A program made the translations under genes and the position numbers. Shown here piece by piece: positions 14,016 through 22,760 of a DNA stretch of 32,000 bases. The notes under the pieces were generated by a model. It was given only the letters and a program-made list of their open reading frames with translations. It had not been told where the DNA came from and ran no database searches. Location of the stretch: positions 24,981-56,980 of the forward strand of contig JAEOSH010000008.1 of the NCBI GenBank assembly GCA_016840465.1. The letters are read 5' to 3'. Within the stretch, counting starts at the first letter, position 1, and each line of letters starts with the position of its first letter. Origin of the DNA: Candidatus Baldrarchaeum yapensis (GTDB taxonomy: Archaea > Asgardarchaeota > Baldrarchaeia > Baldrarchaeales > Baldrarchaeaceae).

Positions 14016-15854
14016 TTGCAATTGCCAGCCGAGCATGCGTTTATAGGGAAATTCTTAGAGCCGGATGGTAAAGTCAACGGAAAAGCGTATCTCGATCTAT
14101 CAAAGCCGAGAGTGGGGGTCATTGTTGGGAAGAGGGGGTCAGGGAAGAGTTACACCGCGGGCGTGATACTAGAGGAGTGCATCAAGCGATATCCCGAGTT
14201 CGCCTATGTGGTCATAGACATAATGGGAATTTATTGGTCTTTAAAATATCCAAACCTGTACGCGAAGGAATTGCAAAAACCCGGATTCGAGGGGGAGGTA
14301 TCACCGGAGGGTTTTGAAGATAAGATTCGAGTTCTCGTGGTGGAGGGGGATAAGGAGAAGTACACTGAGGGAACCTACGATGGAACTATTAGCTTAAAGC
14401 CTAGTGCTATTAGTTACAACGTGTGGCTAAACGTATTCAGGCTCCGCCCAGATGAACCTCAAGCCATTTTGCTGAAACTTGCGATGGATAAGGCGAGGGA
14501 GAAGAAGGAAGATTTCACATTAGAGGACATTATCTCTGCACTCGATGAACTCTCGGAAGGAAAACAATTCCAGAAACAAACATTTTCCGCGCTTAAAGCG
14601 AAACTGAAATACGCAGAAAGTTGGGGGATATTTTCGGGTAAGGGGCTCGATCTCAGAGATATTCTCAAACCGGGTGTAATAACGATAATAGATGTAAGTG
14701 AAAGCGACAAGGTTATCGCAAATCTGCTTGTCGGCTTTTTAGCAGAAAAAATATACGAAGAGCGGAAAAAGTTGATAAGAGCGGAAAGATGGGCGGAAGT
14801 GTCTAAAGAGAAGGCAGATATCAAGGGGATACCACCAACATGGTTAATCATAGAGGAGGCGCACAACTTCCTGCCTAGAGAAAGGAAAACAAAGGCGACC
14901 GGACCTTTGGTGACATATGTTAAGGAAGGCAGACATCCCGGCTGTGCATTACTTCTCATAACGCAGGAACCGTCATCGCTCGATGTTAAAGTGCTAAAAC
15001 AGATAGATTTCCTGATTATACATGGCCTATCGCACAAAAACGACTTTAAGGCAGTATCACAAATAACACCATGCCCTCTTCCCGAAAACTTCGAAGATGT
15101 GCTCTTAAAGTTGGATAGAGGGCAGGCGCTGGTCTGTGTGAGCGGGTGGGAGAATGCACAACTCGTAAGCATACGCCCACGTGCATCTCTGCATATTGCG
15201 AGAACGGAGATTTTGGAGAAAAAGGAAACGGAAAAGACGGAAATTCTAGGCATATGGAAGATGCTGGAAAAGGAACACCTGAAAGTTAAAACGCTCCAGG
15301 AAAGGGTACGCTTACTAGAAAGAGAAAAAGAAGAGCTCGAGCGTAGGGTAAGGTTACTAGAAACGGAAAGAGAAAAACTGATGAAGAAGCTGGAAGAACA
15401 ACACGCGGAAATATTAAGGCTGCAAGAGTTGCTTAAGGAGAGAGAGTCGAGAATGCGGGAGTTAGAAGAGACTATAAGTAGACTGATGTCACGTGAGGAG
15501 TATATGAGTGGGGATGCTCGAAGAGTCGCAGGTGCAGTTGTGAAGGCAGTTGTAAGCGCGGTCAGATCGTTAAGCCCCGAGGCAATTGAGGTACTAAAGG
15601 TAATTTCGAGAAAGGAAAGAGTGGCTACGGATGAATTGCGTAAAGATCTTCCCGTAAAGGTCAGAGTTTCAAACGCCTTAAAGGAGTTAGTTGAAAAGGG
15701 TCTTGTACGCGAAGAAGCCGTAAATAAAAAGGGAAAGAAGAAAATTTACGTCTATAATATGAAGGACGTCATTAAAAGCGTCAGTATAGTTCCTCTAACA
15801 GATCAAGATGTTGAGATACTGGTTAGAAAAATAGAGAGCATAATATTTACATAA
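14016..15854 (+). CDS. HerA/FtsK-superfamily (DUF87) ATPase with a C-terminal coiled coil and winged helix
   Basis: GKRGSGKS, VVID..G.Y, IIEEAHNF, KEGRH (Arg finger), ITQEP. Heptads at about aa 415-495. wHTH-like LSPEAIEVLK...VSNALKELVEKGLV...IYVY. Confidence 0.85.
   Translation: MQLPAEHAFIGKFLEPDGKVNGKAYLDLSKPRVGVIVGKRGSGKSYTAGVILEECIKRYPEFAYVVIDIMGIYWSLKYPNLYAKELQKPGFEGEVSPEGFEDKIRVLVVEGDKEKYTEGTYDGTISLKPSAISYNVWLNVFRLRPDEPQAILLKLAMDKAREKKEDFTLEDIISALDELSEGKQFQKQTFSALKAKLKYAESWGIFSGKGLDLRDILKPGVITIIDVSESDKVIANLLVGFLAEKIYEERKKLIRAERWAEVSKEKADIKGIPPTWLIIEEAHNFLPRERKTKATGPLVTYVKEGRHPGCALLLITQEPSSLDVKVLKQIDFLIIHGLSHKNDFKAVSQITPCPLPENFEDVLLKLDRGQALVCVSGWENAQLVSIRPRASLHIARTEILEKKETEKTEILGIWKMLEKEHLKVKTLQERVRLLEREKEELERRVRLLETEREKLMKKLEEQHAEILRLQELLKERESRMRELEETISRLMSREEYMSGDARRVAGAVVKAVVSAVRSLSPEAIEVLKVISRKERVATDELRKDLPVKVRVSNALKELVEKGLVREEAVNKKGKKKIYVYNMKDVIKSVSIVPLTDQDVEILVRKIESIIFT
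15303..15386 (+). repeat. Imperfect 42-nt tandem duplication (two heptads) in the coiled coil
   Basis: agggtacgcttactagaaa at 15303 versus agggtaaggttactagaaa at 15345; protein RVRLLEREKEELER / RVRLLETEREKLMK. Confidence 0.6.
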
Positions 15855-17072: not shown

Positions 17073-17582
17073 TCATCTCCTAGAGTCTCTTACGATGTTG
17101 CGAGACTTCAGCAGATGTTTCGAGGACATTTCTCTTCGCGCTTCCATAGCATATTTATCCACTAGACGTGCAAGCGGATGATTCTCAGGTATGAAACAAT
17201 AACTCACCGGAGGACACCATTTGGGATCTTCTAGCGCCTCCCTTATCTTCTCGAGAAATATCGGCTCTTTATACATAATTGGATTTAAAACCTCCAGCGC
17301 AACGCCAGAATTACATCCTTTAAAGTATTGATCGAATTCGGTCTTTGTTATGCCTGCATGATCCTTCACCAGATCCCAGAGCAAATCCAAAGACATGGTA
17401 TATTTTCTTCCAGCCCTGAACTCCCCGATTATCGCCTTTACATAGCCTGACGCGTACACTATCACCCGCGTTCCGTAAGGCACAAATGTTAGGCGTCTCC
17501 TGAGTTCATATTTTTTGGTACCCTTCAATATTTGGTACGCGTATTTGGGTTTAATCGACATGAGCATCATAGCGCATCCCAT
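17073..17582 (-). CDS. ASCH (PUA-like) domain protein, COG4933-type
   Basis: LMSIKPKYA..IL.GTKKYELRR (GxKxxExR), VIVYAS..VKAIIGEF. Start may be 17570 or 17567. Confidence 0.88.
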   Translation of the reverse strand: MGCAMMLMSIKPKYAYQILKGTKKYELRRRLTFVPYGTRVIVYASGYVKAIIGEFRAGRKYTMSLDLLWDLVKDHAGITKTEFDQYFKGCNSGVALEVLNPIMYKEPIFLEKIREALEDPKWCPPVSYCFIPENHPLARLVDKYAMEARREMSSKHLLKSRNIVRDSRR

Positions 17583-17622
17583 CGCGTGTGCGTGGCAACT
17601 ATTCTCCGTTATTTTCTCAACC

Positions 17623-17640
17623 TAATAAAAACTTTATATT
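17623..17640. promoter_or_regulatory. Putative bidirectional BRE/TATA element between the ASCH and GNAT-ABC genes
   Basis: AATAAAAA-CTTTATAT on plus and ATATAAAG on minus share the same bases, and it is the only TATA-like element in the 91-nt gap. Confidence 0.45.
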
Positions 17641-17673
17641 CGTTTAGAGAGCGGTATCATCGGTGGGATGTAG

Positions 17674-19638
17674 ATGAAGTTTATAGGCACAGTCGTGGAG
17701 GCAGAAATACCACGTTTCAAGCACAGGTGGTTTGGAGTTCTTGAAGTACAGCACAAAAAGAAGATTTACAGGTTATACATGAGTGGATCGATTACACAAT
17801 GGTTCATCGAAGGGGAACAAGTAGAAGTGAACGTTTTAAAGAAGGGGAAGACAATAAAGGGTAAGAATATTGTAATACTTGATTTTGACGATTTTGAACT
17901 TTACAGGCTTTGGAAGGGTAACAGAATAAAGGTGTGGCCTGTCTTTTCACGAGAGGTAACTCACTCTCGCCCCGACCCGGTCACAGGAAAAATACTGTAC
18001 GAATACAAGATAAAAGCGCGTGAGGCGGTATTTGAGTCCGATTACGAAGCAATAGCATCTCTCGAACAGTACCACTATGCAAGCAAGGAGGAAATCGTCG
18101 CACTATGGAGATGCGAGAAATGCAACGAAATTCTGGAAGCGAACACTAAACCTGAATGCCCTAACTGTAAAACCTCCGAAATGGTGCATATTCTCGAGAT
18201 CAGGGGAAGCACCCCGGCGTCAAGATTCCTTGTGCTGGAGCTGCTGGAAAGAAAACCCTATGAGCCTAGAATAATAGCATACGTCAGGGTGGATCCTCCG
18301 GTTCCATCGATGCACAGAAGGGTAGAAGAGGACGGAAAAGTGATCATTGAAAGAAACATCCGCGAAAAAGTATTCGAAGAGGATTGGTTCCATCCCGTCT
18401 TCTGGCCGGAAAAGATAGCGAGAGAGAAGATAGCGAAACTAAGAAGGAAGTACGGTAGAAGAATAGCGATCCAGAAGATATGGGAAGAGGCCAAATGGGA
18501 AGCTTTGCGTCAATGTGAGACTCAAGTCAGCCGAATTGCAAGAGTTGTTGTGCACCCAGATTATAGAGCGGATGGGCTGGGTGCTCTGAGTGCAAAGCTT
18601 GCCGTTGAGTGGATCAAGGAGAGGGCAGTTCCCGAAATGAAGCTTCCCAAGCATATGGTGGAAACGATCGCACAAATGGCAAGAGCCCACCCGTTTTTCG
18701 AGAAAATAGGATTTAAATATGTTTGGGACACTGCCGGAGGAAGACCCGTACTTTATTACCCGATAACAGACAAAGCTCGTGAAAAACTAGAGTTCTTCCT
18801 GAAAAATGACAAATACGCGTCAAAACATGGAGGAGTTCTTTTCAAGCCAAGATATGGCACGGTTGAGAAAATATCATCACCAATAGAGTTCATAGACGTA
18901 ACTAAAAGGTATGAAAGCGAGTTAGATCTAACAAGATTGCCAGGAGCGCTGAGAGATTTGTTGAGAGCCTTCGGAGTGGAGTCTAGAGTAATAGAACAAG
19001 CAGTCTTCAGGGATGTTAATTTGAAAATTCATCCCGGAGAGGTTATAGTTGTTGTCGGAGCAAGTGGGGCCGGGAAGACCACATTTGCCAGACTGATAGT
19101 AGGCGCATCCAAGGAGTATGAGAAGGCGTTAAGAGAGAAATTGGGTGACGAGAAGTTCGACATATTGTATAAGCCGGATTCAGGAACGATAAAGCTACCT
19201 GATAATGCTAAAATTTCGGCAATTATACCCGGAGAAATAGAGCCCACCTTCGATGACCTGACGCTACTCGAAAAAATATACTCGATAACCGGAGATCAGT
19301 ACTTGGCGGTTGAAATATTGAATAAATGCGGACTGGCGGATGCAGTTCTTTATAGGGCAAGGTTCAGCGAACTTTCAACTGGGCAGAGAGAAAGGGCAAG
19401 ACTTGCTGTAGTTTTAGCAGAAAAGCCAAACATACTTGTAATAGACGAATTTGCAGCACATTTGGATACTCTGACCGCACAAAGAGTTGCTAGAAAGTTA
19501 AATGAGATATGTAGATCTGCTGGAATAACTTTAATAGCGATAACTCATAGACCCGAGGTTCTTGAGGCACTATCCCCAGACAGAATATTATATGTAGGGT
19601 ACGGTACCCTAATTGAGCGCAGATCCTCGATAAAATGA
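17674..19638 (+). CDS. ABC-type ATPase fused to a GNAT acetyltransferase (COG2401-like) with N-terminal OB-like and Zn-ribbon modules
   Basis: CEKC..CPNC, RIARVVVHPDYRADGLG, GASGAGKTT, LSTGQRER, VIDEF, AHLD, ITHRPE. No TM segments. Confidence 0.88.
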   Translation: MKFIGTVVEAEIPRFKHRWFGVLEVQHKKKIYRLYMSGSITQWFIEGEQVEVNVLKKGKTIKGKNIVILDFDDFELYRLWKGNRIKVWPVFSREVTHSRPDPVTGKILYEYKIKAREAVFESDYEAIASLEQYHYASKEEIVALWRCEKCNEILEANTKPECPNCKTSEMVHILEIRGSTPASRFLVLELLERKPYEPRIIAYVRVDPPVPSMHRRVEEDGKVIIERNIREKVFEEDWFHPVFWPEKIAREKIAKLRRKYGRRIAIQKIWEEAKWEALRQCETQVSRIARVVVHPDYRADGLGALSAKLAVEWIKERAVPEMKLPKHMVETIAQMARAHPFFEKIGFKYVWDTAGGRPVLYYPITDKAREKLEFFLKNDKYASKHGGVLFKPRYGTVEKISSPIEFIDVTKRYESELDLTRLPGALRDLLRAFGVESRVIEQAVFRDVNLKIHPGEVIVVVGASGAGKTTFARLIVGASKEYEKALREKLGDEKFDILYKPDSGTIKLPDNAKISAIIPGEIEPTFDDLTLLEKIYSITGDQYLAVEILNKCGLADAVLYRARFSELSTGQRERARLAVVLAEKPNILVIDEFAAHLDTLTAQRVARKLNEICRSAGITLIAITHRPEVLEALSPDRILYVGYGTLIERRSSIK

Positions 19639-19962: not shown

Positions 19963-21765
19963 TTGCAAGAAGGGGTGGAACGCTTGGAAGGAAAGAAGGT
20001 TATTGTGGACTTCAGCGAAACCGAGGAAGTGGTTCTCGGCCCCGACTCCGAACTCGAAGAACTTAAGGTCACTGGTGCGGTCTCCGTGATCAATCCAAGT
20101 GAGAATTCGAGAATATGGAATGCAAAGTTGCATTTGTCCAATGTACAAAATCTTGATATTCCCTCGGGAGAGTATACCGTGGGAGAGGTGGAGCCCGGAG
20201 GCAGATGGTCACGAGAATATAAAGTCAACGTTTCTGAACCCGTTCTTCACGTTAAAGAGGTAATAGACACGTGGGCAAAGGAAGAAGGGGTAACGCATCA
20301 AGCTTTCTGCAGAGGAAAAGAAATGCCCGTATCAATCACGATAACCTTAAAGAATCAAACCGCAATGCCTGTTTTTAACGTCAGGCTCGAAAAGAAACTT
20401 CCTGACGGCTTTGAAGAGCCTGAAATAAAGGCAATGAAGGGTAATGTCACATATGAAGTGGATACTAGGAAGATCATCTGGGAAATTCCTCAGATGGATC
20501 CAGAAGCTGAACTCCTCATGCTGATTAATACTAAGACCCTTCGTGAAGATGGAAACCCCGTCGGAATGGGAGAAATAATTGTCACGTATGAGTTAAAGGG
20601 AAACTGTAGAGCAATAGCTGATGCGCATCTCGAGTCCATCGGCAGAAGTATGACCATGATCAACATAGAGGAGAGCGAAAAGGGACCCGGCTTTTGGGAA
20701 TGCGCGCTCCAGTTCCATAATAGAAGCGACATGATATACCTTGTAAGGAAGGCCGTCGTGACAATGCAAGACCAGAAGATTGTGGAGGTTGAGCCAAACG
20801 CAGAAGTAGCACCAAATGACAAGTGGATTCACAAGTTTACGGTTGAGGGATTAGAAAGTCCGAAACTCGATAAGGTTGTAGATTTCATAGTTGTTTATGA
20901 TATACATAGAAGCCTGAAGGGTACAATAAGGAAGAAGGAAAAAGTATTACCAGTAGTTGATGTGAAATGCGAGAAGAGATTTGAGCCTCCAAGTGTACCT
21001 GCATACCAAGTGACACCATTAACCGCGATACTAATACTGGAAAATATAGGAAGTGCAGTGATAGATTCCGCCGAGTTTAGTGACCTGATACCCAAGCACT
21101 TCGTCCCACCACAACCTGAGGACATAAAGGTCGAGGTTGATGGAAGGTCGGTCGAAGATGGCATAGAGGTTCTGCTGGAACCCTCCGAGGTAACCGCAGA
21201 AACTGAGCACAAGATGCTTGTAAAAGTAACCGACCTAATCGACAGAGTTGGAGGTCTTAAACCTGGAGGTAAACTCGTAGTATCATACCAGTTTAGGGCA
21301 ATGCGACCACTTCCGACGATGGAATATCCAGCTCCCTTGAAAGTTACAGGTTATGCAAAGCCCGCAGGACCTGGCGCGGATGCTGAGACGCCAGAGGGAG
21401 AGCCTAAGATAGGGATAACATACGTTAAGAGAAGATACACCTGCGGAAAGAGTTATGAACCCGGTGCAGCGGCCGGAGAGTTCATAATAACAATTTTGCT
21501 AAGCAATACGGGCGAAGTTCCGCTAGAGGATATAGAAGTTAAGGACGTCATACCAAGAGGATTCGAAGTTGTTGAGTGGACTCCTAAGACCGCTGAAGTC
21601 GAAACTAGAGAAGAGGAAGGAGTGCTTTACTTGGTGTGGAAGGTTCCACGCGTTCCTGCTGGGCAACAGGTAGAACTCGAATATAAGGTTAAGGGAACCG
21701 GTGAGTATGTCTCTAAGGAACCTATAGTGACGATACATGGTGAACGACGGGTGGAAGAGACTTGA
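19963..21765 (+). CDS. Soluble all-beta protein: adaptin mu-homology-like N-terminus plus DUF11/Ig-like modules
   Basis: TTG start after GGTGGGTGA; no signal peptide or TM. VIVDFSET..VTG.V and MKG.V.Y....I.W.I..M motifs; repeated N.G....v.D.iP.gf modules. Confidence 0.75.
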   Translation: MQEGVERLEGKKVIVDFSETEEVVLGPDSELEELKVTGAVSVINPSENSRIWNAKLHLSNVQNLDIPSGEYTVGEVEPGGRWSREYKVNVSEPVLHVKEVIDTWAKEEGVTHQAFCRGKEMPVSITITLKNQTAMPVFNVRLEKKLPDGFEEPEIKAMKGNVTYEVDTRKIIWEIPQMDPEAELLMLINTKTLREDGNPVGMGEIIVTYELKGNCRAIADAHLESIGRSMTMINIEESEKGPGFWECALQFHNRSDMIYLVRKAVVTMQDQKIVEVEPNAEVAPNDKWIHKFTVEGLESPKLDKVVDFIVVYDIHRSLKGTIRKKEKVLPVVDVKCEKRFEPPSVPAYQVTPLTAILILENIGSAVIDSAEFSDLIPKHFVPPQPEDIKVEVDGRSVEDGIEVLLEPSEVTAETEHKMLVKVTDLIDRVGGLKPGGKLVVSYQFRAMRPLPTMEYPAPLKVTGYAKPAGPGADAETPEGEPKIGITYVKRRYTCGKSYEPGAAAGEFIITILLSNTGEVPLEDIEVKDVIPRGFEVVEWTPKTAEVETREEEGVLYLVWKVPRVPAGQQVELEYKVKGTGEYVSKEPIVTIHGERRVEET

Positions 21766-22760
21766 TGGTGAATGTCAAGGAAATTATATACAAGGGACTA
21801 ATACCGGTAATTTCTCCTAAAACTGCACCCTCCCCCCGATCATTTATTTACGAATACCGAGGTTTTCTCAAAGGGCTTGCGCTCATCGCAAGGAACGAAG
21901 AAGGTTTCTCGTACTTTCCCAGTAAAGTTGCACCCTCGGATAAGGAGAATGAAAATTTCATTCCAGAAGCCTCAGAGATCACATCAACTTTAGAAATACC
22001 GACATATTTTGTACTATATACGCACTTTGATCCATTCATGTGGAAAAATTACAAAACTGTTCGCGCGAATAACGAAACTCCAGAAGGATTCATCTGTCCA
22101 ATAAATAAGGAATATTTCGGATATCTAATGAAACTAATAACCGAGTTGTGCGAATATAAACCCCATGGGGTAATACTCCATCTATTTGGCTTCATAAACG
22201 TAGAGTATTGTTTCTGTAGGGATTGCAGAGAGGCCCTCTCCAGGGATGAAAAAATACCCGCAGATATACCTTTCTCTGCGATTAAATCCGATAAAGAGAT
22301 GTACGAGCGCTGGTTAAGGTGGAGATCCAATAATATCATGTCGATATTAAGCGAATTATCAAAGAACGTACACGAAAAGAACGTAAAGTTATATTTAGCG
22401 GTGGAAATAGACCCGTTCTTCGATTGGATAGGAGGTCTCTTTGAAAACTTTGGATACAGGATGGAAGAATTTATAGATGTGCTGGACGGGCTGATCCTCC
22501 ATATTTCTCCGTGGGAGGGATTAATACCCGAGGAGGGAACTGACGAGTACAACCAGCTAGTGAAGGCCATGGAGGAATTAGAGAGACTAAAAGCACGCGG
22601 CTTGGATATATCAATAATGTTCTGGCGACCGGATATGAGCGAGTTCAGTACAATTGTATCCTTAAAGGACAAATTTGGCATCGAAAATGTTTTCTTATCC
22701 ACAGAATCTCCTACGCGCTACGGACACTGGCGTGAAACGAAAATAGCGTACCGCCTCTAA
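21762..22760 (+). CDS. Glycoside-hydrolase-like TIM barrel (GHL10/GH42-like), possibly inactive
   Basis: FICP.N..Y..YL, YCFCRDC, W.RWR...I motifs. Start overlaps the upstream stop (TTGATG). Confidence 0.6.
   Translation: MMVNVKEIIYKGLIPVISPKTAPSPRSFIYEYRGFLKGLALIARNEEGFSYFPSKVAPSDKENENFIPEASEITSTLEIPTYFVLYTHFDPFMWKNYKTVRANNETPEGFICPINKEYFGYLMKLITELCEYKPHGVILHLFGFINVEYCFCRDCREALSRDEKIPADIPFSAIKSDKEMYERWLRWRSNNIMSILSELSKNVHEKNVKLYLAVEIDPFFDWIGGLFENFGYRMEEFIDVLDGLILHISPWEGLIPEEGTDEYNQLVKAMEELERLKARGLDISIMFWRPDMSEFSTIVSLKDKFGIENVFLSTESPTRYGHWRETKIAYRL

Follow-up and report, generated by a model that had tools for sequence, protein, structure and literature searches.

A divergent gene pair in the archaeon Candidatus Baldrarchaeum yapensis, encoding an ASCH protein and a large protein in which a GNAT acetyltransferase domain is joined to an ABC ATPase (hereafter, the enzyme), probably constitutes an undescribed reversible system for marking nucleic acids. 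Since enzyme and ASCH genes recur together or fused in distant microbes, they probably belong to one such system, and its target is very likely to be a nucleic-acid base. The reading that we tentatively prefer is an ATP-driven DNA-base acyltransferase (writer) accompanied by an ASCH deacylase (eraser), with DNA slightly favoured over RNA as the substrate. The pair lies within a stretch of 32,000 nucleotides, referred to here as the window; its features are listed in Table 1.

Table 1. Features of the gene pair, with positions in the window
Feature	Position	Strand	Basis
ASCH protein, ZmASCH/PDC-M11B subfamily, about 165 aa; predicted N-acyl-base deacylase	17073..17570	-	Profile and structure-sequence matches, alignment
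ASCH octapeptide G21-T-K23-K-Y-E26-L-R28; Lys/Glu dyad catalytic in GKER-type ASCH	17499..17522	-	Alignment and preprint comparison
TATA-like candidate element TTTATATT	17633-17640		Invariant in six aligned loci
GNAT + ABC-ATPase protein, 654 aa	17674..19638	+	Pfam, homologue alignment, structure model
N-terminal basic all-beta domain, OB-like, residues 1-90, pI 9.8	17674..17943	+	Structure model
GNAT domain with insertions, residues 105-395	17986..18858	+	Pfam, model, structure comparison
H134-Y135 motif	18073..18078	+	Invariant; position as HY of TmcA/Nat10 and Mom
Zn ribbon C147, C150, C162, C165, inserted in GNAT just after HY motif	18112..18168	+	Alignment
GNAT strand 4 with R287/R290 and acyl-CoA motif A (R298, G301, G303)	18532..18582	+	Alignment
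Single soluble ABC ATPase domain, phage ParB-linked clade	18871..19635	+	Pfam, tree
Walker A	19057-19080	+	Alignment

The divergent gene pair and its products

The two open reading frames, 17073-17582 (-, 169 aa) and 17674-19638 (+, 654 aa), lie head to head, and both are real and placed as the initial annotation of this DNA had described them. The TATA-like element that it had noticed between them is likewise present, and the spacing of TTTATATT relative to the plus-strand gene is promoter-like. Although the ASCH frame itself reaches 17582, the true start is probably Met5 at 17570, an ATG conserved in relatives. GC content across the window is flat (0.41-0.47) and the neighbours are metabolic genes, and a mobile island was rejected on these grounds. 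According to a listing of sequencing runs, the window DNA is found in hydrothermal and sediment metagenomes, and none of the runs listed as containing it is an RNA sequencing run. Elsewhere in the window, positions 19963-22760 (+) hold a gene for a 600-aa DUF11/adaptin-like beta-sandwich protein and a 332-aa gene, each with a paralogue on contig C54, and positions 14016-15854 (+) encode an unusual fusion of a HerA/DUF87 ATPase, a coiled coil and a C-terminal Lrs14/Sta1-like HTH.

The ASCH protein has no Pfam match of its own; its orthologues exceed the Pfam ASCH cut-off. It matches the ZmASCH structures 5GUQ/5GUS (E 4e-8) and the PADLOC profile PDC-M11B (E 5e-31), and it carries the GxKxxExR motif, so the family assignment made from the sequence at the outset stands. 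K23, E26 and R28 are invariant among 36 homologues. The protein has Glu26 in place of the Thr that marks the octapeptide of YqfB-type (GKTR) proteins, and its motif and its likeness to solved ASCH proteins place it with the GKER type. The source genome contains seven ASCH-like genes. Another ZmASCH-type paralogue, sharing 40% identity with the window ASCH, lies at G000 C7:25947-26507 (+), with no adjoining acetyltransferase and with an actin-like gene about 2 kb away (C7:22524-23762). At G000 C33:2346-3322, an EVE-like gene and an ASCH/EVE-like gene stand back to back, near an ATPase gene and small toxin-antitoxin-like genes, in what looks like a defence island.

In the large protein, Pfam detects GNAT at residues 276-347 and ABC_tran at residues 446-593, and members of its family are named 'ABC-type ATPase with predicted acetyltransferase domain' by JGI. 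The prediction of a GNAT with an intact acetyl-CoA motif and a soluble ABC ATPase is confirmed by these domains, by the motif R298-x-x-G301-x-G303 and by the lack of a membrane segment (maximum 19-residue hydropathy 1.37). Across 67 homologues, Walker A, the LSTGQ signature and Walker B (D591/E592) are invariant; the H-loop His625 is kept here, while 35 of the 67 have Asn despite the invariant Walker B Asp-Glu. An ABC transporter is contradicted by the absence of any hydrophobic segment, by the absence of a recurrent permease neighbour across the family loci and by a position outside the transporter clade in the ABC tree.

The structure model of the large protein (pLDDT 90.9) gives a confident all-beta domain at the N-terminus. 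Its membership of the OB fold, as first proposed, is only suggested by weak Foldseek matches, obtained with this domain as part of a longer model, to OB-containing superantigen-like proteins, and a search against the Atlas returned no match. This domain was detected in cellular family members and not in viral ones. The CxxC..CxxC module that had been set apart as a separate unit is indeed a Zn ribbon, but one that lies inside the GNAT domain, and its fourth ligand varies across homologues (C/H/D).

The HY motif is invariant in the alignment: all 94 family members and all 15 distant relatives have it. It closes the first GNAT helix, and an HY occupies the matching place in TmcA of this order (Baldrarchaeales), in Mom and in phage GNATs. 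Judged by sequence position and secondary structure and not by 3D superposition, H134-Y135 would be the counterpart of the HY found in TmcA/Nat10 and in Mom; TkNat10 cannot do without the His of this motif, and in Mom H48/Y49 are important. Foldseek searches with the whole protein were dominated by ABC matches. For the N-terminal half (residues 1-399), the best matches were Kre33/NAT10 (E 2.7e-5 to 1.3e-4) and TmcA. With VIA-align, Mom ranked second (Z 10.3, rmsd 3.2, 169 aligned), tied with ordinary GNATs (YhbS, Z 10.9). A profile comparison with a single Mom sequence gave no match, and a sequence search of the PDB found weak generic GNATs only.

Linkage of the enzyme to ASCH proteins

The frequency of the pairing was assessed in 107 loci gathered by the large protein alone, with lineages defined at 75% identity. 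An ASCH gene adjoins the enzyme gene in 22 of these loci and in 11 of 36 lineages; in seven of the 22, all from this order, it is of the window type, and in the other 15 it belongs to a second subfamily, the commonest partner, whose match to TthASCH has an E-value of 1e-30. In the source genome, just 1.5% of long ORFs have an ASCH gene within 1.5 kb, a background that the enzyme-ASCH adjacency exceeds about 20-fold. If the 35 lineages held as few as five independent events, p would still be about 1.5e-4, a rough value given that kin are not independent. Counts that contain fused sequences from a targeted search do not enter these frequencies.

Five layouts were observed: divergent, convergent, tandem upstream, tandem downstream and fused. 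The fusion occurs in 25 protein clusters, two of which are named Caldiserica and Chloroflexi, and the fused sequences form one clade. In a FastTree phylogeny of 94 full-length sequences, the window-type ASCH recurs in two unrelated branches, and the two ASCH subfamilies substitute for each other beside the same enzyme gene; ASCH neighbours were found again in look-ups of deep relatives. A first tblastn search had suggested that the pairing was confined to this order, which was overturned when profile searches and neighbour clustering brought the second ASCH subfamily to light. Within the order, enzyme and ASCH stay paired while their flanks vary, and one relative with a 91%-complete genome has neither gene.

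The functional link is therefore real but optional, since Pyrococcus, most Thermoproteota loci and likewise most family members lack an adjoining ASCH. No strong TthASCH-type match was found in the 11 Thermoproteota genomes that have the enzyme. The complex prediction for enzyme and ASCH scored 0.00 and gave no verdict, being evidence neither way. The link that the initial annotation had posited is thus upheld by recurrent adjacency, partner replacement and fusion, and the synteny on which it was to be judged does recur without being obligate.

A parallel writer-eraser layout is seen in four genomes of this order, where the gene immediately after TmcA encodes an ASCH protein. In G000, the two are a TmcA/Nat10 gene at C56:23303-25807 (-) and an ASCH gene at C56:22744-23337 (-), with related loci at L158, L160-L162, L119 and L122; the TmcA-adjoining ASCH paralogue in G000 differs from that in G002-G004.

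For the window ASCH, an eraser is favoured over a reader because the usual partner family is that of TthASCH, an ac4C deacetylase with the same GxKxxExR. As described in a 2026 preprint (bioRxiv 10.64898/2026.02.27.708502), TthASCH (TTHA0113) needs Lys23 and Glu26 for this activity and binds tRNA and ssDNA, 19 of 19 ASCH proteins tested, GKER types included, remove tRNA ac4C in vitro, and ZmASCH does so in vitro only and does not hydrolyse free ac4C. The Glu of the motif, which had been taken to make a reader as likely as an eraser, is thus no argument for a reader, as GKER-type proteins deacetylate tRNA ac4C through the same Lys/Glu dyad that is kept here. We regard it as improbable that the enzyme acylates bases while its ZmASCH-type partner does no more than bind the mark or cut ssRNA that bears it. 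Such a reader or regulator would suit the ssRNA nuclease activity of ZmASCH and its inactivity on free ac4C, the interpretation that in PIN-GNAT-EVE operons the same ASCH subfamily binds modified DNA (PMC7641849), the PDC-M11B match and the pI of 9.7. It fits poorly with the invariance of Lys23/Glu26, with the removal of ac4C from tRNA by ZmASCH in vitro, and with a usual partner, TthASCH, that is an active amidohydrolase from a subfamily interchanging with the window type at the same gene.

Distribution and viral relatives of the enzyme

Full-length homologues of the large protein number in the hundreds, and identity to it is 52-81% among the best 120. Their hosts are vent archaea and thermophilic bacteria, including Thermococcales, Desulfurococcales, Korarchaeota, Njordarchaeia and others, and the spread is patchy, with strong matches in 5 of 41 Asgard and 11 of 201 Thermoproteota genomes. 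In three of these 11 Thermoproteota genomes, the gene carries an internal stop or is split (L149, L150, L151), which could be decay or sequencing error. Intact members occur in P. furiosus (AAL81362.1), P. horikoshii (BAA30615.1) and Thermococcus species, and the Pyrococcus loci show stable synteny; given that Pyrococcus and Thermococcus are culturable, the long-standing GNAT+ABC prediction is open to test.

Cellular members often lie among translation or RNA-modification genes, and the neighbours seen include THUMP, radical SAM, CysRS, Rio kinase, eIF1A, NMD3, SpoU, TsaE, PheT and pseudouridine synthase; no nuclease was found near them. In Pyrodictiaceae-like loci (L006, L013, L016), the enzyme gene is part of a conserved block with radical SAM, THUMP, HerA-like and CysRS genes. 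Our literature searches found no paper on this GNAT+ABC-ATPase family, COG2401 giving false matches only, and the accessible parts of papers on BREX and on ParB-CTPases do not describe it.

In an ABC tree with 12 transporter ABCs as the outgroup, a single clade (100/99) unites the family with its defence-island relatives and two phage ParB-linked ABCs. The top matches in phages include ABC genes that stand ahead of terminase in ParB-ParB-ABC-GNAT blocks, and the GNAT of the phage block aligns with that of the family (hhalign 86%, E 5e-6), HY and other motifs being common to both. Two full-length viral-like members were identified, one in an archaeal virus-like module of PolB-SSB-Cas4-ASCH-ParB-enzyme and the other, also archaeal virus-like, in the order N6/N4 DNA methylase-ParB-enzyme-terminase. 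The ParB profile of the module matched nothing in the source genome or the cellular loci, and ParB with a packaging context was seen in viral members only. A midpoint tree had made the viral members basal, a placement rejected with the outgroup-rooted ABC tree; as they are nested there inside the family on long branches, only relatedness, and no direction of transfer, is claimed. Scanning IMG/VR with the N-terminal half found nothing.

Related archaeal virus-like contigs with ParB and the enzyme are L171 and L173, the latter with AdoMet decarboxylase and N6/N4 methylase genes before terminase, a gene set that suggests DNA hypermodification. Distant relatives adjoin DrmE_C/helicase or MZB/Cas1 genes; a clade of 550-890 aa GNAT-ABC proteins (L172:2369-4321, L175:8001-10445, L137:487-3048), beside MZB/Cas1, DrmE_C/helicase and resolvase genes, includes one with a weak DruA match.

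Candidate substrates and comparison with known systems

The domains, the motifs, the family relationships, the gene linkage and the fusion are direct observations. Under the preferred reading, for which we infer every chemical step, the base and the choice between DNA and RNA, the large protein would be a nucleobase N-acyltransferase driven by ATP, probably dimerizing through its single ABC domain and using ATP to grip the nucleic acid or move along the strand. The basic beta domain and the Zn ribbon would hold the strand, while the HY-motif GNAT would acylate an exocyclic amine, either cytosine N4 or adenine N6, the acyl group most likely being acetyl donated by acetyl-CoA. The divergent ASCH may be the matching deacylase, erasing the mark or recycling acylated nucleosides. 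The module is a relative of the ParB-ABC-GNAT DNA-modification cassettes of viruses and would have become established, free of ParB, on the chromosomes of thermophiles.

Nucleic-acid base acylation, as put forward in the initial annotation, is supported by the HY motif, by the Foldseek matches to Kre33/NAT10/TmcA and by the ParB, methylase and terminase contexts of relatives. The viral and defence-island relatives point to DNA, whereas the housekeeping neighbourhoods rich in RNA genes fit RNA better and, with the orphan ac6A, leave room for it. An RNA writer and eraser, that is, a TmcA-independent tRNA/rRNA acyltransferase helping at heat, such as the ac6A writer or one serving a few ac4C sites, is unlikely, though still a serious contender. 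The thermophilic hosts, the stable synteny in Pyrococcus, the RNA and translation genes nearby, the RNA acetyltransferases as best Foldseek matches and the tRNA deacetylation by ASCH partners all agree with it. In addition, the tRNA of M. kandleri is reported to contain N6-acetyladenosine (ac6A), to which no site or role has been assigned (PMC7694415). However, TmcA is present in 5 of 5 genomes of this order, and Nat10 H506A or deletion wholly abolishes RNA ac4C in T. kodakarensis, which makes the enzyme unlikely as the bulk RNA ac4C writer; the family gene is confirmed in other Thermococcus and in Pyrococcus. Moreover, a Thermococcus nucleoside survey does not mention ac6A, this nucleoside was tentatively seen in the mesophile M. 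maripaludis too, and the viral relatives lie in DNA-modification blocks.

It is also improbable that the GNAT acetylates a protein, an aminoacyl-tRNA or a small molecule under ATPase control, with the ASCH adjacency incidental. The weak generic GNATs of the PDB search, a VIA-align ranking that singles out no nucleic-acid enzyme, the seven ASCH-like genes of the genome and the many family members without a partner would suit such an enzyme, but an adjacency about 20-fold over background that takes five layouts, involves two ASCH subfamilies and extends to fusion would not, nor would a two-gene unit kept while its flanks vary and missing as a whole from the 91%-complete relative, or the invariant HY motif. 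Against the DNA-base writer and eraser that we prefer stand the lack of ParB or a nuclease beside cellular members, the tie of Mom with ordinary GNATs in VIA-align, the ZmASCH type of the window ASCH, the lack of an adjoining ASCH in most members and the H-loop Asn in 35 of 67 homologues.

The pair could, with some doubt, be part of a second, TmcA-independent reversible base-acetylation system, virus-derived and present in hyperthermophilic archaea and thermophilic bacteria, which would act on their own chromosomal DNA or supply the missing RNA ac6A writer, with a dedicated ASCH eraser. We know of no prokaryotic chromosomal DNA acetylation system. In the literature searched, we found no description of the ASCH coupling, of the partner exchange or of the chromosomal branch in thermophiles. 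ASCH deacetylases have only just been described, without known writer partners in the text accessible to us, and the family links the questions of chromosomal DNA acetylation, ac6A and the ASCH deacetylases.

Among known systems, the (PIN)-GNAT-EVE + ASCH operons, PDC-M11 in PADLOC, resemble the pair in that their ASCH, found alongside a GNAT, belongs to the subfamily of the window ASCH (PMC7641849). The window differs in having no PIN, EVE or AAA_17 and in a GNAT that is of another kind and fused to ABC. The large protein matched none of the PDC-M11 profiles of PADLOC, only PDC-M11B being found, on the ASCH, and Pfam detected no PIN or EVE partner gene among the window neighbours, and a PDC-M11 system was rejected on this basis. 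With respect to the TthASCH, ZmASCH and YqfB deacetylases, the window ASCH is ZmASCH-like with the Lys/Glu dyad, and the usual and fused partner of the family is TthASCH-like; the studies, as far as the accessible text goes, give no writer partner or genomic link (bioRxiv 10.64898/2026.02.27.708502).

TmcA, Nat10 and Kre33 likewise join an HY-motif GNAT to an ATPase, but theirs is helicase-like, whereas the large protein has an ABC ATPase and the reversed domain order. Pfam finds ABC_tran in it and no RecD-like ATPase, TmcA_N, GNAT_acetyltr_2 or tRNA_bind_2, and the true TmcA is a separate gene of the source genome, where PF13718 matches elsewhere. The analogy to TmcA drawn at first, sound as regards a GNAT joined to an ATPase, is therefore loose, given the ABC motor, the separate TmcA and a closer precedent in the ParB-ABC-GNAT module. 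Phage Mu Mom, which acylates DNA adenine N6 using Gly-tRNA (PMC13219725), is a GNAT whose HY sits at the matching site and whose strand 4 carries an Arg; it has no ATPase, in contrast to the large protein with its ABC ATPase and intact CoA motif.

Acylation of a DNA base by a GNAT coupled to an ABC ATPase has already been published as a prediction, by Iyer et al. (2013), as restated in PMC7824862. The predicted ParB-ABC-GNAT DNA-acylation module shares its ABC clade and its GNAT motifs with the present family. The module is itself a prediction, and the papers found demonstrate an acylated DNA base for none of its members. Compared with this module, the family described here is a single chain with the GNAT before the ABC domain and with an added beta domain and Zn ribbon, and its cellular branch is chromosomal, restricted to thermophiles in the matches seen, free of ParB and recurrently partnered by an ASCH protein.
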